A stretch of DNA of 31,757 bases from Armatimonadota bacterium (GCA_031405735.1 JANNJE010000474.1:1-31757), one strand, 5' to 3'. Positions 10,978 through 27,770 are shown, counted from the stretch's first letter. The notes: a model not told the origin generated them from the letters alone. Made by a program: numbers and translations.

Positions 10978-13065
10978 TTAGAAGCCCGGAAGGTTCGGAA
11001 AAGTTTTCCAAGTTTCACCAAGCCATTTGTCAGAATTGGCTTTGGCCCCGATTGCCGCATAAATTCCAGCAAGAGGATAAGCCAGTTTTGGATGGCTCCG
11101 AGCGCGAGAAGTAAGCTCGGAAATGGCCCTATTTTCCAATTTCAAGCCAACCACTACCGAAAGAAAATCTGAAACTAATGAGAGATTGTGCGGATCAAAT
11201 TCGATCGCGATCAGGGCGTCTCGAAAGGCTTCCTCAGGTTTTCCCTTTGAAGCCAACAGTTGAGCCTTTGCTATCCAAGCAGCTCCAGATTCCCGCTTGA
11301 GCCGAATTGCCTGATCAAGTGAAGCAATGGCTTCATCGGCCCTTCCCATGGTTGCTCTTATTAGGCCGAGATTCAAATGTCCAACAGAATCTGTTGGGTT
11401 TTTCGAAACGTATAACTCTATCGCTTTGGCTCCTGATTCAAGTTCTCCAGATTGGGCCAACAGCATTCCCTGATTCAGTAAGTTCGAGAGGCGATCTGGG
11501 TCGGCGGAAACTGCGCGGTTGAACGCATCAAGCGCTTCCCTGTTTTTACCTAACCGCAACAACGACTCGGCGTATTCGGACCAGAGGGCTCCAAGGCCAG
11601 TTTTTGATTCGACCACAAGTCCAAATTCTCGTTGAGCCGTTTCAAAATCTCCCGCAATGTAGCTCAAATGTGCAAGCTGCAGCCTCGTGTTCGGACGATT
11701 TGAGTCCAACGTCAAAGCCTTTCGAAACTGTTTCTTTGCGGCTTCAAAATCACCGCGGAATTGAGCGGTTACGCCAAGTTTGTACTTCCACTCGGCGACA
11801 GGAAACAGAGCCATTGAGTCTGCCTTCAAAAAGCTTTCCTCCGCTGATTTTGCTAGGCTTGAGGCTTCAGTAGAGTTCGGATCCCTTTCCGATAGCGCAG
11901 TTGCAACCAATAACGCGCGAGTTCCTTCATGGGTGAAGTAGTTGACAATTCCGCTATGGACTGTGATTCCTGCGATTGCCAAGCCTAGCCCTATTCCGAA
12001 AATGCCTGTCTTCGTTAGACGACCCGTTCGTTTAAGCTGCCATCTTTGAACCCGCAAATCCTTCGAGTAAGCAAGTCTGCAAAACGACAAGAGCAAAAAG
12101 GCATTGATCGAAGAAAGCCCGACGCTCAGCAAGAACGGCACTGCGTCATATAGCCCGCGAAACGCGTAAAACGAACCAGCGAAGAAGGCAAAGAGCGCAA
12201 TTTCTTCGGGCATAGTAACGTCGTAATGCCTTTCGGCTCGTACTTTAGCAGTCTTCTCCGGAATCGGCGAGCCAAAGCCGTAATACAAGGCACCTTTTGG
12301 ACAAACGCTCACACAATCCATGCATTTCATGCACCCCGAATCGTGGACCATTTTGAAAACGGCAACTTCTTCATGAACCTTTATGTTCGAGGTGCATGCA
12401 GTCGTACAATGGCCGCACTGGTCGCAGTCGTCAGTCACCCGAATTCGCCCCGGCGCGACACGGTCCGCATGGTAGAAAATTCCGCCGTAAGGGCAAGCGT
12501 ATGTGCAAAATCCCTTGTTTCCAAGCAATATGACGATCAAGAATCCGCAAACGGAAAGGGTTAATAAGGCAATCTGCCAGTTCGGAAACGTTGCCCAGAA
12601 GTTCTCGGTTTGAAAATGCGCCGCCCATGCCGGATTCCCGTTTCCAGCCAGAATTCGAACTAGCGAAGGATAGGCAAACATGTAAAAGGCCGCAAACACA
12701 GGAATCCATACGAGCAACCTGGAGCGAAGCGGCTTCGGGCGAATCCCGACCTTCTTCAGCATCCAGGAGCAAAGGTCTTGCAATGCCACGACATGGCATC
12801 CCCAACCGCAAAACCACCTTCCAAAGATCAATGTGCTCAGGATGGCAAGGGCGAAGAACACGAACCCGGCGTTCACATATCCAAGCTCGAGCGTCTGCAT
12901 CGCCTCGCTGGGTTCAACGGGTGAAACCGTGCTGCCCGTCGCCTTCCAATGCCAAATGTGCAAAGCGACGAGCACATGAACCCCTATGAGCACCATCGCG
13001 CGCCACTTTCCCATCTTTGATGGGCGCGGCTTCGTTCCGGGCTGGATTACGTTGAGCTTCGCCAT
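10978..13065 (-). CDS. Polytopic membrane 4Fe-4S protein (NapH/MauN/CcoG-RdxA type) fused to a C-terminal TPR domain
   Basis: FCGWGCH and FCTYACPYG motifs, two ferredoxin motifs (CDQCGHCTTAC, CMKCMDCVSVCP), several TM helices, then about 6-7 TPR-like repeats. Confidence 0.88.
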   Translation of the reverse strand: MAKLNVIQPGTKPRPSKMGKWRAMVLIGVHVLVALHIWHWKATGSTVSPVEPSEAMQTLELGYVNAGFVFFALAILSTLIFGRWFCGWGCHVVALQDLCSWMLKKVGIRPKPLRSRLLVWIPVFAAFYMFAYPSLVRILAGNGNPAWAAHFQTENFWATFPNWQIALLTLSVCGFLIVILLGNKGFCTYACPYGGIFYHADRVAPGRIRVTDDCDQCGHCTTACTSNIKVHEEVAVFKMVHDSGCMKCMDCVSVCPKGALYYGFGSPIPEKTAKVRAERHYDVTMPEEIALFAFFAGSFYAFRGLYDAVPFLLSVGLSSINAFLLLSFCRLAYSKDLRVQRWQLKRTGRLTKTGIFGIGLGLAIAGITVHSGIVNYFTHEGTRALLVATALSERDPNSTEASSLAKSAEESFLKADSMALFPVAEWKYKLGVTAQFRGDFEAAKKQFRKALTLDSNRPNTRLQLAHLSYIAGDFETAQREFGLVVESKTGLGALWSEYAESLLRLGKNREALDAFNRAVSADPDRLSNLLNQGMLLAQSGELESGAKAIELYVSKNPTDSVGHLNLGLIRATMGRADEAIASLDQAIRLKRESGAAWIAKAQLLASKGKPEEAFRDALIAIEFDPHNLSLVSDFLSVVVGLKLENRAISELTSRARSHPKLAYPLAGIYAAIGAKANSDKWLGETWKTFPNLPGF

Positions 13066-19313: not shown

Positions 19314-19359
19314 CCTATGATCGCCGTCATAGGCAAACGGTGCCTGATCATCCTAATCT
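19314..19359 (+). promoter_or_regulatory. Crp/Fnr-like site ATGA-N6-TCAT plus -10 (TAATCT) upstream of the porin
   Basis: CCTATGA-TCGCCG-TCATAGG; the 14-bp core (19317-19330) is followed by a 23-nt gap and TAATCT at 19354-19359. Confidence 0.6.
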
Positions 19360-19376: not shown

Positions 19377-20534
19377 ATGTACATCGTGCCAATTCTTTTT
19401 CAGCAATTTGACTTCACGCCATATCTCGATGTCCGATTTCGCGCAGAACGGCGGCTCAATCGCGACTTTTTCTCGCCAACAGACGACGACCGAAGCGACC
19501 TGTACTCACGCTATCGTCCTGGTGTGCAATGGAAATATGGCAAGAACTGGTCCGGCGACATACAGTATCAATACGCTGATGACAAGATTTACAAAACTGC
19601 TTCGACAACAAGCGATGAGTTCAGCGATCTCAATTTGGCGTTTGCGAAATACAAAAACAACAAGATCGAGGTGACGTTTGGCCGGCAGAAGATCAATATA
19701 GGTTCGGAACGGCTGATTGGAACTCTAGAGTGGGCAACGACCGGCCGATCATTTGATGGAATTCGTCTCAAATCGGGCCAATGGGATGCGTATGCCTTCA
19801 AAGTTGGCGTCGCGCGTCCTATGCCTGGCCGAACTCGAATTGTTGGAGCCACCTACTCTGGGAAAGCAGGCGCTACATCACTTATTTTCAAGAATGATGA
19901 CCGTTCTTCCATTGATATTTTGACTCTGTCGCACCTTTGGCAAAAGCAGTGCGGAAAGTGGAGTTTTGATGTTGAGGGAGCTGTTCAAACAGGCTCAGTT
20001 GGTGCACGGGACCTAGAAGCGTGGGCCGGTCATGGAGCCGCAACTTACAGTTTCTCCAAGGCAACTCGCGGATATGTTGAGCTCAATGCAGCCAGCGGCG
20101 GCGGAAATTCAACTACGACTCGCACTTTCGACAATCTCCTTCCTACCAACCACAAATTCTATGGCTCAATGGACATGCAGTCGTGGCGCAACATGGAAGA
20201 AATCGCAGTTGGACTTGAGCATCAAATCAATCCAAAGTGGAGCGCAAAAACGAGTATTCGCAGTTTTTCGTTACGAGATGCCAGAGACGCTTGGTACGGG
20301 GCAGGCGGAGCACCTAATTCTGGACCAAGCGGCCCTTTTGTAGACCCAACTGGAGCTTCGGGACGCGATGTCGGCCGTGAATTCAACCTTGAGTTTGGAT
20401 GCAAGCAAAGCCCAACACTCTCATTCTCTGCAGGAATTGGAACATTCTTTCCGGGCGATTTCATAAAAGCTCAAAACGGCGGCCAAGCCGACAGACAGTA
20501 TTGGGGATATGTGATGGCTCAAGTGAGACTTTAA
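19377..20534 (+). CDS. Alginate-export-family outer-membrane beta-barrel porin
   Basis: R.R.E N-terminal strand, GRQ.I..GSERLIG..EW...GRSFDG, TFDNLLPTNHKFYGSMD and a C-terminal strand (WGYVMAQVRL). AGGA Shine-Dalgarno. Confidence 0.85.
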   Translation: MYIVPILFQQFDFTPYLDVRFRAERRLNRDFFSPTDDDRSDLYSRYRPGVQWKYGKNWSGDIQYQYADDKIYKTASTTSDEFSDLNLAFAKYKNNKIEVTFGRQKINIGSERLIGTLEWATTGRSFDGIRLKSGQWDAYAFKVGVARPMPGRTRIVGATYSGKAGATSLIFKNDDRSSIDILTLSHLWQKQCGKWSFDVEGAVQTGSVGARDLEAWAGHGAATYSFSKATRGYVELNAASGGGNSTTTRTFDNLLPTNHKFYGSMDMQSWRNMEEIAVGLEHQINPKWSAKTSIRSFSLRDARDAWYGAGGAPNSGPSGPFVDPTGASGRDVGREFNLEFGCKQSPTLSFSAGIGTFFPGDFIKAQNGGQADRQYWGYVMAQVRL

Positions 20535-20538
20535 AAGG

Positions 20539-21573
20539 ATGGTTGACTCTGAACTGAAACCGTCAGGCACTGATTACAATTCAATTGAAATGGTTCACAT
20601 CACAGAAGCCGAGCCGGAGCTGAGAACGAAGTTTGAAGTGGCCCTTGCTCCAGAACTTCTTTCCACGAATTCTGGCACGATAGACATTCAACAGATTCCA
20701 AACAAAGAGCTTGTTCACACACTTTGCATTACTGTTCGCTCTAAGATAGCCAAAGCTGAGCTTGATGCATTGCCGAATCTCAAGTTGATAGCAACAGGTT
20801 CAGTAGGAATAGACCATGTTGATTTTGTAGAAACACGACGCAGAGGCATCACAGTCTGCAATGTGCCCGAATATGGTTCAGCAGTTGCTGAATTCAATAT
20901 CGCACTGATACTAATGCTTTCTCGGAAACTGCATGTGGCGTATAGACAGACATCGCAACGCGACTTCACTTTGAATGGTTTGCTCGGGCGGAACATAGAA
21001 GGTCGAATTCTCGGGATTCTCGGCACTGGCAACATTGGGATGAACGTTGCCCGATTGGCAAATGCGCTTGGGATGACAGTGATTGCCGTTGATCCAAATC
21101 CACGTCGGCATGACTTTCTGCAATTTGTAAAACTGCCGGAACTGCTGGCGGCATCCGATCTTATTTCGATATGTTGTCCCTTAACTGAAAAGACAACTCA
21201 CATGATCAGCCGAGAGCAATTCGGGCAAATGAAGCGAGGAGTGCTTATCGTCAACACTTCGCGTGGAGCCGTCCTGGATAAGCAGGCATTGCTTTGGGCG
21301 CTTGATGAAGGCATTGTAGAGGGTGCTGCACTTGATGTTTTGGAAGGCGAAGTTCTTCTCCCACCCAAGACGCCGAAGGTAAGTGCGGTCGGGAAACGGG
21401 GCCCCGAACAGGCTCTACCCATCGGCGATGACCTTACTTTGATGCATCATCCAAAAGTGATCGTTACCCCTCACATGGCGTATTACACGCAGGACTCGTT
21501 GGATCGTATTCGACAAGTCACAGTGGAAAATGTTAGGTCATTTCTTGCGGGTGAACCGCAAAATGTCTGTTGA
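20539..21573 (+). CDS. D-isomer-specific 2-hydroxyacid dehydrogenase (D-lactate dehydrogenase-like)
   Basis: VCNVPEY, GILGTGNIG, NTSRG, LDVLEGE and TPHMAYYT motifs. Confidence 0.92.
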   Translation: MVDSELKPSGTDYNSIEMVHITEAEPELRTKFEVALAPELLSTNSGTIDIQQIPNKELVHTLCITVRSKIAKAELDALPNLKLIATGSVGIDHVDFVETRRRGITVCNVPEYGSAVAEFNIALILMLSRKLHVAYRQTSQRDFTLNGLLGRNIEGRILGILGTGNIGMNVARLANALGMTVIAVDPNPRRHDFLQFVKLPELLAASDLISICCPLTEKTTHMISREQFGQMKRGVLIVNTSRGAVLDKQALLWALDEGIVEGAALDVLEGEVLLPPKTPKVSAVGKRGPEQALPIGDDLTLMHHPKVIVTPHMAYYTQDSLDRIRQVTVENVRSFLAGEPQNVC

Positions 21574-21606: not shown

Positions 21607-21649
21607 ATGACCTTGGTCATAGTGAAAACCACTCCATGGTTGTCATCAT
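21607..21649 (+). promoter_or_regulatory. Second Crp/Fnr-like site ATGA-N6-TCAT plus -10 upstream of narK
   Basis: Perfect palindrome ATGACC-TT-GGTCAT (21607-21620), the same 23-nt gap, then TGt-CATCAT (21641-21649) with the ATG 6 nt later. Confidence 0.6.
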
Positions 21650-21655
21650 AAGAAA

Positions 21656-23164
21656 ATGAGTGAAAGAGCAACATCAAATCGAGTCCTGTTCATGAATACT
21701 CTGGCTTTCACGGTCTGCTTTGCAGTCTGGACGATGTACGGAGTCTTAATCACATTCTTGGTTGACAATCGCTACCTGATCGCCGACAAAGCACAGCTTG
21801 GCTGGCTTATAGGAATTCCGATTCTGACGGGTTCTATTGTCCGTCTCCCGGTTGGATTGATGACGGACCGATATGGAGGAAAGCCTGTCTATCTTTCCGT
21901 AATGGTGTTTGCTGCTCTATCCCTCTTTGTTACGAGCCAGGTTTCGACTTTTGCCGGATTCATAGTTGGGGGCCTGCTGTTTGGGGTAAGCGGCTCTGCA
22001 TTTGCCGTTGGAATTGCCTACTCTTCTATGTTCTTTCCCAAAGAAAGGCAAGGTACTGCCCTAGGAATTTTTGGTATGGGAAATGCTGGAGCGGCAGTAA
22101 CAACACTAGCTGCACCGACCATGCTGAAAAACTTCACGAACGGCGGCGAGAACATAGAAGGCTGGCGAATGCTTCCGATCGTTTACGGAATCGCTCTCCT
22201 CGTGATGACGGCACTCTTCGCGATATTCACAGTCAATCGAAAAGTAGATGAAGCTGGGCAAAAGACGATCGGACAGATGCTAACTCCTCTCGGCGATGTG
22301 CGAGTTTGGCGATTTGGCCTTTACTATTTCTTGGTGTTCGGCGCTTTCGTGGCGCTTGCACAATGGCTGGTGCCCTACTACCTAAATGTCTATGGAATGA
22401 GCCTGGCCATGGCTGGTTTGCTGGCTTCTGTATTTTCGCTGCCGTCAGGTGTGATTCGCGCATTGGGCGGTTGGGCGAGCGACAAGTTTGGTGCTCGCTC
22501 GACGATGTACTGGGTGCTTACTTCATGCGCGTTGTTCTTCTTGCTTCTTGTAGCACCACGAATGGATATTCGCTCGCCAGGCGAAGGAATCATGGCGGAT
22601 CGGGCTGGGAAAGTCGCTTCGGTGGAGGGAAATAAAGTCGTCGTCGATTCCTCGCTTGTTAAGCAAGAGACCGTAAAAGTCGCGGATTTCAAAACTTACA
22701 AACTGAAAACCGAAACTGCCCTAGACCCTGCCATGCTCGAAGAAGGCACGCTTGTTTGGCCGACCTTTCGTTCCTGGCAAGAGCCAGCAGTCCGACCCGG
22801 CCAGGTTATCAAGAAGAAAGAACTACTCGCTCGTGGAGTCACGCACGTTTACTTTCAGGCCAATGTCTGGGTATTTACAGGATTAGTCTTCATTGCCGGA
22901 ATCATGATGGGAATCGGTAAAGCGGCAGTTTACAAACACATCCCCGAATACTTTCCGAAAGACGTTGGCGTAGTTGGCGGAATTGTGGGCGTCATCGGCG
23001 GCCTTGGCGGATTCTTCTGCCCGATCCTGTTCGGCTACCTTTTGAAGCTGACGGGACTTTGGACGTCGTGCTGGTTGTTCCTTGGACTGTTGAGCATTGG
23101 GTGCCTCGTTTGGATGCACTTAGTGATATTGAGAATGACAAAAGACATGACTCCAGAGAAGTGA
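21656..23164 (+). CDS. narK: Nitrate/nitrite MFS transporter (NarK family) with a ~100-aa soluble insertion
   Basis: LTGSIVRLPVG, FAVGIAY..FFPKERQGTALGIFGMGNAG, FGLYYFLVFG.FVAL, RALGGW.SDKFG and GIGKAAVYKHIP motifs. Confidence 0.92.
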   Translation: MSERATSNRVLFMNTLAFTVCFAVWTMYGVLITFLVDNRYLIADKAQLGWLIGIPILTGSIVRLPVGLMTDRYGGKPVYLSVMVFAALSLFVTSQVSTFAGFIVGGLLFGVSGSAFAVGIAYSSMFFPKERQGTALGIFGMGNAGAAVTTLAAPTMLKNFTNGGENIEGWRMLPIVYGIALLVMTALFAIFTVNRKVDEAGQKTIGQMLTPLGDVRVWRFGLYYFLVFGAFVALAQWLVPYYLNVYGMSLAMAGLLASVFSLPSGVIRALGGWASDKFGARSTMYWVLTSCALFFLLLVAPRMDIRSPGEGIMADRAGKVASVEGNKVVVDSSLVKQETVKVADFKTYKLKTETALDPAMLEEGTLVWPTFRSWQEPAVRPGQVIKKKELLARGVTHVYFQANVWVFTGLVFIAGIMMGIGKAAVYKHIPEYFPKDVGVVGGIVGVIGGLGGFFCPILFGYLLKLTGLWTSCWLFLGLLSIGCLVWMHLVILRMTKDMTPEK

Positions 23165-23222: not shown

Positions 23223-24257
23223 ATGGAACGACCTGGGCGAGCCCAATCAATCTCAATAGGTACTGCGCTTTGTACAGCTTTCCTAATCTTGGCTGGCATC
23301 TATTTTGGTTCGGGCGCCCTAACTCGATTCGATACGCCATTGGCTGCTTATGCCGCTGCTACGGTCTTCGCCGGATTTGCGATTGCTTACCGATACACGA
23401 TGTGGATTCAACGTCCTCCTACATGGCACTATTTCAAAGCGGGTTGGAGACTCTTTCTTCGACCTAAGTATCTTTTGCCAAATATGTTCAAGCTCGCTGG
23501 GCTACTTTGGAACCAGATCGTTGCTCAAAGATTTATTGAACGAAGGAGCAGACAACGATGGGCAGCGCACATGTGTTTAGCTTGGGGATGCCTGATTGCC
23601 TTTGCCATAACTTTTCCGCTGAGCTGGGGTTGGGTGCAATTTGGCATAGCCGAAAACGGGCGCGACTACGTGGTTGAGTTCATGGGGATTCCGCAAATCG
23701 CATTCCCGCCAGATGGTGTGCTGGCGTTTTTCATGTTCAATGGACTTAACATTAGTGCGGTAATGGTTCTCACCGGTGTGGCACTTGCAATGCACAGAAG
23801 GCTTTTCGATCGTGGATCTCAGGCCGTTCAAACTCTTGCGAATGACCTCATTCCCTTGTTTCTGCTTTTCGCGGTGTCTGTCACGGGACTAATGATAACG
23901 GCAAGTTACAAGCTGATGGGAGGAGAGAACTATTCGTTTCTTTCGCTATTGCACGCATTCACGGTTGTGATTTTGCTACTTTGGCTTCCCTTTGGCAAGC
24001 TTTTCCACGTCATCCAGCGGCCAGCTCAATTGGGTGTTGCCTACTATAAGGAAGAAGGAGCAAGGACAGAGCAAGCGCACTGCGTACGAACCGGGGAGGG
24101 GTATATGAGCAAGATGCATCACGACGACCTTGTGCTTGTTATGCGTCAGTTAGGAATAGACTTTGGGGAGCATCAAGACCTATCGCCAGCAGCAAAGCGG
24201 AACCTAATCGCTTTGAACCAAGCTGCACTTATCGAAGGCCAGCCTTTTGTGGGCTGA
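23223..24257 (+). CDS. NarI-like (cytochrome b-type) integral membrane protein
   Basis: Six to seven TM segments; H116, plus H244 and H262 18 residues apart in H...LPFGKLFH, which parallels NarI H187/H205 (PFSRLIH). Confidence 0.7.
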   Translation: MERPGRAQSISIGTALCTAFLILAGIYFGSGALTRFDTPLAAYAAATVFAGFAIAYRYTMWIQRPPTWHYFKAGWRLFLRPKYLLPNMFKLAGLLWNQIVAQRFIERRSRQRWAAHMCLAWGCLIAFAITFPLSWGWVQFGIAENGRDYVVEFMGIPQIAFPPDGVLAFFMFNGLNISAVMVLTGVALAMHRRLFDRGSQAVQTLANDLIPLFLLFAVSVTGLMITASYKLMGGENYSFLSLLHAFTVVILLLWLPFGKLFHVIQRPAQLGVAYYKEEGARTEQAHCVRTGEGYMSKMHHDDLVLVMRQLGIDFGEHQDLSPAAKRNLIALNQAALIEGQPFVG

Positions 24258-24301
24258 TTGAGGCTCATAACACAATCCCTCAGATAAAGTCGCAACTGTA
24301 A

Positions 24302-24529
24302 CTACCCCTTGCGCATTCGGGTGATGCCTCGCAGCATCCAAAAATTTACGCCGAACAAGGCGATGCTTGCGATCGCAGCAGGTAGAGCCATCTCGGAACG
24401 GCCCCCGATTAGGCCCTCCAACACGCTCACGAAGAGCCAGAGCTGCAGGAGGATCAACACTAGGTTGAACAGCAAAAGGGCAACGATGACCGTTCCACGC
24501 TGACGTCGGATTAAGTCGTTAGGTCTCAT
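24302..24529 (-). CDS. Small two-TM membrane protein (DUF6755-like)
   Basis: RRQR...LILLQLWLF...GG...PAAIAS pattern; ATGA-coupled to the Rieske gene. The family name is from memory. Confidence 0.7.
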   Translation of the reverse strand: MRPNDLIRRQRGTVIVALLLFNLVLILLQLWLFVSVLEGLIGGRSEMALPAAIASIALFGVNFWMLRGITRMRKG

Positions 24530-25026
24530 TCGGTATCCTCACTTCGCTTAACGCCAACTGCCCACAATTCTCCACCTCGATCTTCGATCAGAATTTGAGG
24601 CAAAGGATGCGGAGGTGGTCCCTGCAAAACTTTGCCATCTTTAACGGAAAATGCCCCGTTGTGGCAAGGGCAGTACAATCTGTCCTTTTCAGGCTGGTAG
24701 TCAACTGGACAGGAGAGATGCGTGCACCTGCGGGAGAAAGCCGACACCGTACCATCCGACTGGCGCACCAGAATACATAGGTCGCTCTTTCTGGGATATG
24801 TAAAAGCAAGTGAAGTGCCAGGACTAATATCCTCTAGCCTCGCAATATGCATCGGCTCGAAGTGTCGCTCGTCACGACTCATTTGCGACCATGCAACAAG
24901 GCCAAGTGACCCGGCCGTGAGCCCTCCGCTTGCCAAGGTCATGAACTTGAAAAACTCTCTGCGGGAAACAAAACTATCCTCCTCCCAATCTATTGGAAAG
25001 TCATCGAGTAACTTCTCGTCCATCAT
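24526..25026 (-). CDS. Rieske 2Fe-2S protein with a Tat-type anchor
   Basis: SRREFFK twin-arginine motif followed by a hydrophobic helix; CTHLSC and CPCHNG Rieske boxes. Confidence 0.95.
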
Positions 25027-25622
25027 GACAACCTCGAAACTTGCAAAAGGTCGCTTTTTCGGATCAATGCATCCTGTCTTACGTCCAATTTCGTAGTTCC
25101 CGCTGGCATCATAAGGTTCACCTTAGTCTTGATCGTCCGACCGCTAAAAACGAATTCATTGATCGGCGTTCCACTGCGTTGAGCCGCCATCTCTTCAGGT
25201 GTGCAATACATGAGTGCTTGCGAGGGGCAAACGGTAGCGCACATCGGCTTTTTACCCACAGACGTGCGGTCGTAACACATATCGCATTTCATCATCTGGT
25301 CAATCTCAACGTCGTACTTTGGTACTCCGAACGGGCAAGCGTAAACGCAGTTTGTGCATCCGATGCAACGAGGCTTCAGCGACGTCTGGACGACACCGTC
25401 GGGCGTACGCTTTATTGCGTCGGCTGGGCAGACCATCGCGCATGCAGGTTCTTCACAATGCATGCAGATTACCGGCGTGGTTTGAACGCTTTCACCCCGC
25501 TGGATGGTCTCGAGATGAATCATCGAGACTCCGGCATGAGTGTCGCATTCTGCACAGGCGGCCACACAGGCGTTGCAACCAATACACCTGCTCGGGTCAA
25601 TGTAAAACTGCCTCTCGCTCAA
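25023..25622 (-). CDS. Four-cluster 4Fe-4S electron-transfer subunit (DmsB/NrfC type)
   Basis: [37 protein letters not shown] and CDMC...CATVCP. Confidence 0.95.
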
Positions 25623-25969
25623 GCGCTTGTACCTCCAACAGGTGGGCGTACCATGTTTGGCATCAACCCCCTTCGACGCTTATGGATGTTAACATAAGTT
25701 AACTCTCCCTGCGATGCATGAATGCTGCGATGGCAGCCCTTTGGAAGCACGACTATTGACCCAACACAAAGGGTAGTTGACTGGCCGTCAACTGTGATTT
25801 CGCCCTCTCCGCCAATAACAACCATGATGACGTCCACTTCATCGTTCTGATGAGTTCCGACACCCGAACCATCGGTCCATCGCACCAATGTGGCATTCAA
25901 GTCTTCCGTTTCGGTACCCCAAAGAGCACCGTCTGCGCCATCCATGCTTAACGCTTCAACTGCGATCAT
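25619..25969 (-). CDS. Cupin domain protein
   Basis: [21 protein letters not shown]...L.VG..VVLPKG..RSI pattern; ATGA overlaps at both ends. Confidence 0.8.
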
Positions 25970-27762
25970 GCAATGGCCCCCTGATCAGCAGATGAACTGA
26001 TTCGGACAACCGACTTTTTGTATTCAGGAATCTTGCTCAGCGGGTCAAGGGCGCGGTTCGTGAGGTTGTTCGCAGACCGTTTGCCGGGCCAATGGTAAGG
26101 GATGAAGATGGTGTCGGGGCGTATCGTAGAAACCACTTTTGCGCGAAGTACAACCTCGCCGCGGCGACTTTCAACCTTCATCCAACTGCCGTCTTCAATA
26201 CCGTAATTGGCCGCAAGCGTCGGATGAATTTCAACATACGGCTCAGGGCACATGTCAACCAAGCCGCCGATACGACGTGTTTGTGTACCGCTAAGATACT
26301 GCGAAACGACGCGGCCAGTTGTGAGAATTATAGGATATTCTTCGTCTGGCTCTTCTGCGCTGAGGCGATAAGCCGTGGGGTGAAAGTGCGCTTTGCCGTC
26401 CGGGGTATGAAACTTCATTGTCTCGAACAGTCGCGGAGTGCCTGGGTGGCCGATCTCGGGGCAGGGCCAAAATACGCCCATCTCGTCCTCGATCCTTTGA
26501 TAGGTAATCCCGAAATAGTCTGCAGTTCCGCCCTTGCTCGCAATTCGCAACTCGTTGAAAATGTCCTCGCTGGTCTTAAAGTGGTCGAAATACTTGCCCC
26601 TGCCAAGCCGCCGGGCGAGTTCGAGAATGATCTCTGTGTCGGCTTTTGCTTCTCCTGGTGGATCAACTGCCTTTCGAATCCGAATCACACGGCCTTCTGC
26701 ACTTGTGCTTGTGCCTTCTTCTTCTTCATGCAATGAGCCCGCGAGGACGATATCGGCGTGGTGGGCGGTCTCATTTAGAAAGAAGTCTATTGCAGTATAG
26801 TGCTCGAGTTTGCCTAGTGCGTCCCTCGTGAAGTTTGAATCCGGCAACGAAACAAGTGGATTGAAGCAAATCGAGATGAGCGCTTTGATCGTGCCTTCGT
26901 GGATCATGTTCATGATCTCTTGAGCCGTGTGTCCTTTGCCAGGCATCTCGCTCTCTTCAATGCCCCAAACGGAGGCTATGTACGCACGATGCTCCGGATT
27001 CTCGATGTCGCGGTTGCCAGGAAGCTGGTCGCATTTGTGACCGTGCTCACGGCCGCCTTGGCCATTCCCTTGGCCCGTGATTGTGCCGTATCCGCAACCC
27101 GGCTTTCCGAGCCTTCCTGTTGCGAGTACAAGATTGATGCAGCCAAGCACATTGTCAACACCTTTGGTATGGTGCTCGATCCCTCTCGCATGAAGCAGAA
27201 AGCTCGTTTTTGCTTCGCCCCACATTCGGCCCGCCTTCTGGATGTCCTCGACTCTGACGCCGCTAATCCTGGATGCTTCCTCCAATGATTGAGTAAGAGC
27301 ACTGGCCTTCGTCTCTTCCCACCCGCTTGTGTGCTGTTGGATGAATTCCTCATTCACAAACCCTTCTTCGATCAGCACTCGCAAAATCCCCGTGAAAAGG
27401 GCACTGTCTGTCCCCGGCCTCACCGGCAAATGCAGGTCGCAGGTTCGCGCTAGGGGTGTCACGCGAGGATCAATCATGATCAGCTTTGCACCCCGATCCC
27501 TTGCACGCCAGATGTAGTCAGTCGTGATCGGAGAGCACTCTGCTACGTTTGTTCCGGCGCAAAGAATTACATCCGCAAGGACAATGTCATCCCAAGAATT
27601 CGCAGCTCTATCAATGCCAAACGCTTTCTTGTTGCCTGTTCCTGCGCTCACCATACAGAGTCGGCCATTGTAATCCAATTCTTGTGTTTGCAGAGCGACG
27701 CGGGCGAACTTGCCCATCAGGTAGCTCTTCTCGTTTGTTAATGAAACGCCGGAAAGCACGGC
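25966..27762 (-). CDS. Molybdopterin oxidoreductase catalytic subunit (Nas/Nap-type nitrate-reductase-like), 5'-truncated at the junction
   Basis: NGRLCMVSA (Cys-Met Mo-ligand context as in Nap/Nas), [26 protein letters not shown] and KIPEYK. The N-terminal 4Fe-4S domain is absent. Confidence 0.88.
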
Positions 27763-27770
27763 GCGCGGAC
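27755..27770. other. Chimeric junction between two genomes or contigs
   Basis: Two opposite-strand genes are both truncated at this point, with an abrupt change to GC-rich codon usage. Confidence 0.88.

Follow-up and report, generated by a model that had tools for sequence, protein, structure and literature searches.

The closest described relatives of the gene set reported here are nitrate reductases and related enzymes with a molybdenum-bis(pyranopterin guanine dinucleotide) (Mo-bisPGD) cofactor. In NarGHI of Escherichia coli, whose genes are linked to narK, a catalytic subunit of about 1240 residues without a twin-arginine translocation (Tat) signal is joined to a four-cluster iron-sulfur (Fe-S) subunit and to the membrane cytochrome b NarI. 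NasC and NarB of Bacillus and cyanobacteria are cytoplasmic, have an N-terminal [4Fe-4S] motif and a Cys-Met active site, and are served by NasB, ferredoxin or flavodoxin. Archaeal pNarGH with NarB/NarC and arsenite oxidase AioAB include a Tat-type, bc-like Rieske protein in a Mo-bisPGD gene set and hold their Mo subunit on the outer face of the membrane. Here we analyse positions 23,223–27,762 of a 31,757-nucleotide stretch of DNA (GCA_031405735.1 JANNJE010000474.1:1-31757; the window), which is contig C474 of the metagenome-assembled genome (MAG) of an Armatimonadota bacterium (562 contigs, 85.7% complete). The locus encodes a NasC-like Mo subunit, a four-cluster Fe-S subunit, a Rieske protein, a small membrane protein of family DUF6755 and a NarI-like cytochrome b. 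This module is real, conserved and biochemically undescribed, and is a variant of the complex iron-sulfur molybdoenzyme plan, not a wholly new kind of system. We consider it fairly probable that it forms one quinol-linked, membrane-bound, cytoplasm-facing dissimilatory nitrate reductase, in which the plan of NarGHI is followed with a catalytic subunit of NasC type and a Rieske protein of its own.

Five genes of the locus lie on the minus strand: the 5'-truncated gene of the NasC-like Mo-bisPGD subunit (25966–27762; Pfam Molybdopterin and Molydop_binding), that of a small cupin protein (25619–25969), that of a four-cluster [4Fe-4S] electron-transfer subunit of the DmsB/NarH/FdnH class with a TTG start (25023–25622; Fer4_11 and a DmsB-type NCBIfam match), that of a Rieske [2Fe-2S] protein with a twin-arginine signal-anchor (24526–25026; Pfam Rieske and NCBIfam) and that of a 75-residue, two-helix DUF6755 membrane protein (24302–24529; Pfam PF20540, 93 bits). 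They converge with four plus-strand genes, for a porin, a dehydrogenase, NarK and the NarI-like cytochrome b, the last of which (23223–24257; Pfam Nitrate_red_gam and the NCBIfam QmoC C-domain) has six helices and a cytoplasmic C-terminal domain. An earlier note on this DNA had described five minus-strand genes converging on narK and a NarI-like gene; the open reading frames (ORFs) were found as placed, and Pfam and NCBIfam agree with the identities it had given. It had also described the five genes as chained by ATGA overlaps. A 4-nucleotide overlap does occur at all four junctions, three of them ATGA, but the one between the cupin stop and the TTG start of the Fe-S gene is TTGA. The narJ gene, a companion of narGHI, was not seen in the locus.

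The family of the catalytic subunit is best described by the NasC model NF047855, the top NCBIfam match, with 761 bits for the window fragment, 839 for the full-length protein of a close relative (P0001, locus L010) and 850 for a Flavobacterium homologue; the equivalog cut-off of 1100 is reached by none of them. NapA and NarG models fall far below theirs, NapA models giving 268–282 bits (cut-offs 904–931) and NarG TIGR01580 51 (cut-off 1084); AioA-type TIGR02693 gives 156–170 (cut-off 359), and the Cys ligand and the four-cluster partner that AioA lacks are both present here. At about 730 residues and with this ligand, the subunit also differs from NarG in size and active site. The truncated protein has RLCM at residue 33, and the solved formate dehydrogenases aligned with it carry RLC/U-H at that position, in agreement with the ligand context that had been read from the sequence. 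The possibility that the enzyme acts on formate, chlorate, selenate or another oxyanion, its nitrate-related neighbours being coincidental, finds some footing in the fact that cytoplasmic formate dehydrogenases are its closest matches among solved structures (465 bits versus 351 for NapA). That comparison is biased towards formate dehydrogenases, as the search of the PDB returned no NasC or NarB structure, and the RLCM site, the NasC score of 839 against 601 for the formate dehydrogenase alpha model with the full-length relative, and linkage to NarK in several phyla and to NirK in two of them make a different substrate highly improbable. A second protein of the MAG that matches the NasC model (contig C10, 483 bits) was considered as a further nitrate reductase and set aside, being of the formate dehydrogenase type (RVCH).

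The start of the Mo gene is cut at 27763, with the loss of about 140 codons. The missing end is absent from the other contigs of the MAG (the relative's N-terminus, used as the query in tblastn and blastn, matched only the formate dehydrogenase on C10), and contig C445, considered as its carrier for having the orthologue of the gene that lies upstream in L010, stops short of the Mo gene. The relative in L010, whose Mo protein is 98% identical, gives a full reading of 729 residues starting MARPP. The earlier note had left open whether the subunit has an N-terminal Fe-S cluster and a Tat signal; the end recovered from this relative, and not from the MAG, holds the [4Fe-4S] motif C-x2-C-x3-C...C (HCCFCGQQCG...CPKG) and lacks a twin-arginine motif. 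The same holds for 17 representative loci from all sampled phyla, where HCCFCGxQCG...CPKG is always present, an RR motif never, and all have their N-terminus lengthened by a conserved stretch of about 40 residues. With this cluster motif and without a Tat signal in the recovered N-terminus, the Mo subunit most probably has its catalytic site on the cytoplasmic side. In this the module is like NarGHI and NasC/NarB, and differs from NapAB(GH), pNar and AioAB; the N-terminal extension and the membrane partners in place of NasB, ferredoxin or flavodoxin separate it from NasC/NarB.

The partners are kept with the Mo subunit over a wide range of bacteria, as counted in 80 related loci. All four (NarI-like protein, Fe-S subunit, Rieske protein and DUF6755) are present in 49 of these, and in every locus that extends far enough past the Fe-S gene to hold one, a Rieske gene comes downstream of it (59/59), directly adjacent in 58. 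The core set is also found in Bacteroidota, Acidobacteriota, Omnitrophota, Sumerlaeota and Actinomycetota. Flavobacterium, Pelobium, Geothrix, Solibacteraceae, Omnitrophota and Sumerlaeota share one collinear arrangement (NarI-like, Mo, Fe-S, Rieske, DUF6755); Acidimicrobiia have these genes linked, and in Fimbriimonadaceae they are rearranged. DUF6755 comes after the Rieske gene in other phyla too, and NarK-type genes of the major facilitator superfamily (MFS) adjoin the module in most loci. The earlier note had named a lack of such conservation as grounds for abandoning its reading; the synteny shows the reverse, and together with the missed NasC cut-off and the distant NapA and NarG scores it upholds the description of a membrane-bound, nitrate-reductase-like complex unlike Nar, Nap and Nas. 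In two Acidimicrobiia loci (L079 and L087) a single ORF of 1057–1074 residues spans the NarI-like gene into the Mo gene; its middle resembles out-of-frame sequence, so that a frameshift, or an open frame due to high GC, may account for it instead of a true fusion.

The electron-transfer subunits are equally distinctive. The Fe-S subunit, of about 200 residues, has four Cys groups that are invariant in 28 sequences, lacks a signal peptide and is not a NarH orthologue (38 bits with the NarH model, cut-off 524). The Rieske protein opens with a conserved tail, DFPIDWEED, followed by the twin-arginine signal-anchor SRREFFK, whose motif precedes a Gly/Ala/Ser-rich helix; (S/T)RR(E/D)F is present in all but one of about 60 N-termini across phyla, and the MAG encodes TatC. 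Its cluster boxes, CTHLxC and CPCH, are of the bc type and include the two disulfide cysteines. R22 and R23, C101, H103, C106, C119, C121 and H122 are invariant in 28 aligned sequences, and the best NCBIfam matches are to bc1, b6f and arsenite oxidase types, all under cut-off. Of the bc-like coupling proposed in the earlier note, the Rieske part thus stands, but the cytochrome is NarI-type: no PF00033 cytochrome b gene as in bc complexes belongs to the module, and the NarI-like protein takes its place, unlike in pNar, whose cytochrome is of bc type. A separate Rieske and cytochrome b gene pair occurs elsewhere in the relative, where L010:78-2867 holds a cytochrome c–NarI-like fusion followed by the pair, 5 kb upstream of the NasC-like gene.

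We predicted the structure of a complex of the NarI-like protein, DUF6755, the Fe-S subunit and the Rieske protein from paired alignments, with the Rieske protein as the scored partner. Its ipSAE was 0.78, against 0.27 for the best of three controls; of 80 solved complexes 58 attain the mark used for this score, as do 2 of 110 mismatched pairs, rates that apply only roughly to the present case, where our own alignments and four chains were used. At least 89% of contacts are common to the runs, and the partner's predicted local distance difference test score (pLDDT) is at least 77. Of the multimer modelling that the earlier note had proposed, this four-chain part passes its controls. In the predicted complex, Rieske residues 12–19 (the DFPIDWEED tail, before the RR motif) contact residues 59–79 of the Fe-S subunit; the Rieske signal-anchor helix is packed between the NarI-like protein's second helix and both helices of DUF6755; and the Rieske cluster loops (103–107 and 120–124) sit on acidic outer loops of the NarI-like protein (133–172 and 228–241), beside His244. 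The prediction supports, without proving, a single membrane complex whose Rieske cluster is on the outer side and whose Fe-S subunit is on the inner. The same geometry bears on another arrangement, in which the Mo, Fe-S and Rieske proteins would be exported as a unit on the Rieske Tat signal, giving a periplasmic nitrate reductase anchored to a NarI-like quinol dehydrogenase. There is a precedent in arsenite oxidase, where AioA is carried out on the Tat signal of AioB, and here too the Rieske twin-arginine motif is near consensus, and such a motif is missing from the Mo and Fe-S subunits. Yet the predicted Fe-S contact precedes the RR motif and the Rieske domain lies on the outer loops, so that the membrane would separate the two; anchors of the NarI superfamily, NarI among them, have their partners in the cytoplasm; and NarK is tightly linked to the module, at times even fused to the NarI-like protein. 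We regard export as very unlikely.

The kinship of the membrane cytochrome with NarI is seen at several levels. In a profile search of PDB sequences E. coli NarI is the sole significant match (E 0.002), with H244 and H262 aligned with NarI H187 and H205, and the charge distribution matches the orientation of NarI, plus an extra N-terminal helix and the cytoplasmic C-terminal domain. The AlphaFold2 model (pLDDT 84) gives a VIA Z of 11.7 to the membrane domain of mycobacterial EtfD and 10.4 to NarI; a Foldseek search of the same model against the PDB found no match at E ≤ 0.001, mostly rows of G-protein-coupled receptors, among which only EtfD stood out. Among 1.8 billion representatives the family numbers 132 clusters (E ≤ 1e-30), and in 51 of its representatives H116 is conserved in 94%, H244 in 100% and H262 in 92%. 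A Gly-Cys cysteine two turns above His116 (C123), invariant in the 28-sequence alignment, was considered as a haem contact and dropped, as only 49% of the 51 wider representatives have Cys there. Natural fusions of 752–829 residues (P0007, P0042 and P0055) carry an N-terminal MFS transporter ahead of the NarI-like domain. This places the N-terminus of the latter in the cytoplasm, and the fusions tie nitrate/nitrite transport physically to the membrane subunit.

Whether the enzyme serves assimilation or respiration can be addressed from the gene content of its carriers. In a fixed set of 80 Fimbriimonadaceae genomes with a completeness of 90% or more, the module, with DUF6755 as its marker, is present in 42, and NarG, NapA and NirK are absent from all 80. 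NIR_SIR, a marker that covers all siroheme nitrite and sulfite reductases, occurs in two genomes, one of them shared with the module, leaving 41 of the 42 module-bearing genomes without it. NrfA is found in 24, 15 of which have the module; the co-occurrence is weak (the module is in 15/24 genomes with NrfA and in 27/56 without), and a dedicated NrfA–module pairing was considered and is not claimed. In our MAG neither NIR_SIR nor NirK was found at its 85.7% completeness. The earlier note had seen no nitrite reductase, and ORF annotation indeed shows none within the window; an NrfA is encoded on another contig (C327:2208-3638, minus strand), with 476 residues, four CXXCH and one CXXCK motifs and an N-terminal hydrophobic anchor, and no nrfH adjoins its gene there. 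[quoted passage not shown] Neighbours elsewhere also point to respiration. A NirK fused to cytochrome c (351 bits with the NirK model, above cut-off) and NirV lie beside the module in Flavobacterium loci, NirK-like genes are within 8 kb of it in 10 Flavobacterium and 2 Omnitrophota loci, and in Geothrix it adjoins a Crp/Fnr regulator, MoeA and multihaem cytochromes.

Taken as a nitrate reductase on the NarGHI plan, the complex would work as follows. On the outer side of the membrane, the NarI-like cytochrome b and the cluster tip of the Tat-inserted Rieske protein would together form the site where menaquinol is oxidised, with protons released outside. Via haem b, electrons would cross the membrane and enter the cytoplasmic Fe-S subunit with its four [4Fe-4S] clusters, then reach the N-terminal [4Fe-4S] cluster and the Mo-bisPGD of the NasC-like subunit, where nitrate would be reduced to nitrite with consumption of cytoplasmic protons, the whole being a proton-motive redox loop. 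DUF6755 and the Rieske signal-anchor helix would keep the Rieske protein on the cytochrome, and its conserved N-tail would clamp the Fe-S subunit on the cytoplasmic side. NarK would bring nitrate in and take nitrite out, and the porin would let the anions cross the outer membrane. In the Armatimonadota organism periplasmic NrfA would take up the nitrite and reduce it to ammonium; in Flavobacterium and Omnitrophota the neighbouring NirK would receive it.

Several points weigh against this reading. What the analysis shows is gene content, conservation, motifs, similarity of fold and co-occurrence; the activity and topology of the complex, nitrate as its substrate, quinol as its donor, the electron path, energy conservation and the part played by the Rieske cluster are predictions from these, and the complex prediction reports the model's own confidence and is not a measurement. 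NarGHI oxidises quinol without a Rieske protein, and so the NarGHI plan does not explain the Rieske subunit. The MAG holds another uncharacterised Mo enzyme, of the type II dimethyl sulfoxide (DMSO) reductase family, on contig C218, and 27 of the 42 module-bearing Fimbriimonadaceae genomes show no recognised nitrite reductase. An equivalent of NarI His66 was not found in the NarI-like family. With only three of the four NarI haem-ligand histidines conserved, a two-haem wire through the protein is not established; H116 and H262, near the cytoplasmic side, would hold the inner haem, and the outer one would be held by H244 alone or may be bound differently. A 2023 family survey describes the NasC/NasA clade as exclusively assimilatory. 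NIR_SIR is present in Flavobacterium calami and in Omnitrophota and Sumerlaeia carriers (four carrier genomes were checked), and carriers outside Fimbriimonadaceae may have an assimilatory or dual role.

This last point belongs to the view that the module is an assimilatory nitrate reductase with an unusual electron supply, the Rieske and Fe-S proteins delivering reducing power to NasC. NasC is after all the best family match, and the ammonium made by NrfA could be assimilated. The gene linkage has been noted once before, by Heylen and Keltjens (2012, PMC3475470), in Bacillus (Neobacillus) bataviensis, where a 729-residue NasC is followed by an iron-sulfur protein and then a Rieske protein; they read it as an alternative assimilatory system, and B. 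bataviensis has a siroheme nitrite reductase, a further point against a respiratory role. As described in that paper the linkage is like the module, and it is a genome observation without experiments in which membrane subunits are unmentioned. Against assimilation stand the near absence of NIR_SIR from module-bearing Fimbriimonadaceae and its absence from the MAG, the constant presence of three membrane proteins and an exported Rieske domain, the adjacency of NirK and NirV in Flavobacterium and of a Crp/Fnr regulator in Geothrix, and the unmet NasC cut-off. On balance we find an assimilatory function unlikely.

It is more difficult to say what a Rieske cluster does in such a complex. One idea is that the Rieske tip and the outer haem site form a Qo-like pocket that splits the two electrons of quinol, one going to cytoplasmic nitrate reduction and the other via the Rieske protein to a periplasmic acceptor such as NrfA or, in Flavobacterium, the cytochrome-c-fused NirK. 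We hold this to be quite unlikely. Were it true, the complex would be a hybrid of bc-type and Nar-type redox loops in which one quinol site feeds two steps of nitrate respiration, and the missing fourth His would mark an unusual outer haem or its replacement. A partial parallel comes from Streptomyces coelicolor, where Nar1 activity is reported to depend on the bcc-aa3 supercomplex (PMC7931247). As presented there, Nar1 faces the cytoplasm and appears to need a Rieske-containing partner instead of working as a simple menaquinol oxidase; it is a true NarGHI with a separate canonical bcc complex as that partner, whereas the module encodes its own Rieske protein. Full-text searches, with most subscription journals outside their coverage, found no description of the NarI-like/Mo/Fe-S/Rieske/DUF6755 set and no characterisation of the complex, as the earlier note had supposed.

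The other genes of the locus fit around the module in varying degrees. The cupin protein (116 residues; weak Cupin_2, Cupin_3 and EutQ matches) is a lineage-specific insert between the Mo and Fe-S genes and is translationally coupled; its metal motif is partly degenerate (H-x-N...E, then H...H). A cupin gene after the Mo gene is found in Fimbriimonadaceae loci only, often there, and it could be an accessory or maturation factor peculiar to this lineage. On the plus strand, narK (21656–23164) encodes a NarK-family MFS nitrate/nitrite transporter of 502 residues (MFS_1; TIGR00886 182 bits, under cut-off). Two stretches of it match MFS_1, the best of them spanning residues 17–301, and the part after that looks hydrophilic by eye, which suggests that the transporter carries an inserted soluble segment; a Flavobacterium neighbour of similar length (510 residues) is about 50% identical to it in the best segment. 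Upstream lie the genes of an NAD-dependent D-2-hydroxyacid dehydrogenase (20539–21573; Pfam 2-Hacid_dh_C) and of an outer-membrane beta-barrel of the alginate-export family, a candidate anion porin (19377–20534; Pfam Alginate_exp, 131 bits). Members of the 2-hydroxyacid dehydrogenase family adjoin the module in 8 Flavobacteriia-type loci (34–36% identity). In Flavobacterium calami both a D-2-hydroxyacid dehydrogenase and an alginate-export-type porin flank the module (L050:3438-4703 and 11352-12377), the porin gene being upstream of narK; the dehydrogenases of the window and of this species (about 34% identity) may be non-orthologous. Contig C218 of the MAG (L092:2184-9413) encodes NrfC-like (Tat) and NrfD-like proteins, a Crp/Fnr-family regulator, the type II DMSO-reductase-family Mo subunit (812 residues) and a fusion of cytochrome c with a second NarI-like domain.

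Two palindromic boxes of the form ATGA-N6-TCAT, detected by pattern match on the plus strand, lie upstream of the porin gene (19317–19330) and upstream of narK (21607–21620). The window has two matches where 0.62 would be expected; in 11 of 100 shuffles two were reached as well. The relative L010 has boxes at orthologous places with different spacers (14140, 16430 and 5893), and none was seen by eye upstream of its Mo gene. Their form fits a candidate Crp/Fnr-type site.

The window DNA is contained in freshwater-sediment metagenomes, and its nearest public relatives are Armatimonadota of the family Fimbriimonadaceae. No RNA data set was listed among those that contain it, an outcome that speaks neither for nor against expression. 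It should be noted that the contig is chimeric. The guanine-plus-cytosine (GC) content is 0.501 over positions 1–27760 and 0.626 from 27761 to the end, while contigs of the MAG average 0.492 ± 0.015; ORF content also changes there, an independent Logan contig from the same study tracks the window up to 27763 only and is unlike it beyond, and no Logan contig bridging 27763–27781 was found. The join at 27763–27764 to unrelated GC-rich DNA is therefore an assembly artefact and the right-hand 4 kb are misjoined, and the GC step and the end of the Logan contig agree with the earlier view that the operon is cut at this junction. Genes to the right of 27763 are thus not assignable to the Armatimonadota organism. 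The segment 27764–31757, foreign to the MAG, starts inside a DNA polymerase I gene (frame open to 29060), and public contigs cover it at far higher and uneven depth.

Genome and metagenome surveys score the Mo subunit of this module as an assimilatory nitrate reductase (nasA/nasC). If the complex is respiratory, nitrate-respiring capacity is being under-counted and mis-assigned in Armatimonadota, Flavobacteria, Geothrix, Omnitrophota, Sumerlaeota and some Actinomycetota. For the NrfA-bearing Fimbriimonadaceae the module would, if our reading is true, explain the source of their nitrite, and it would constitute a fourth architecture beside Nar, Nap and Nas, with the first Rieske protein built into a NarI-anchored complex.

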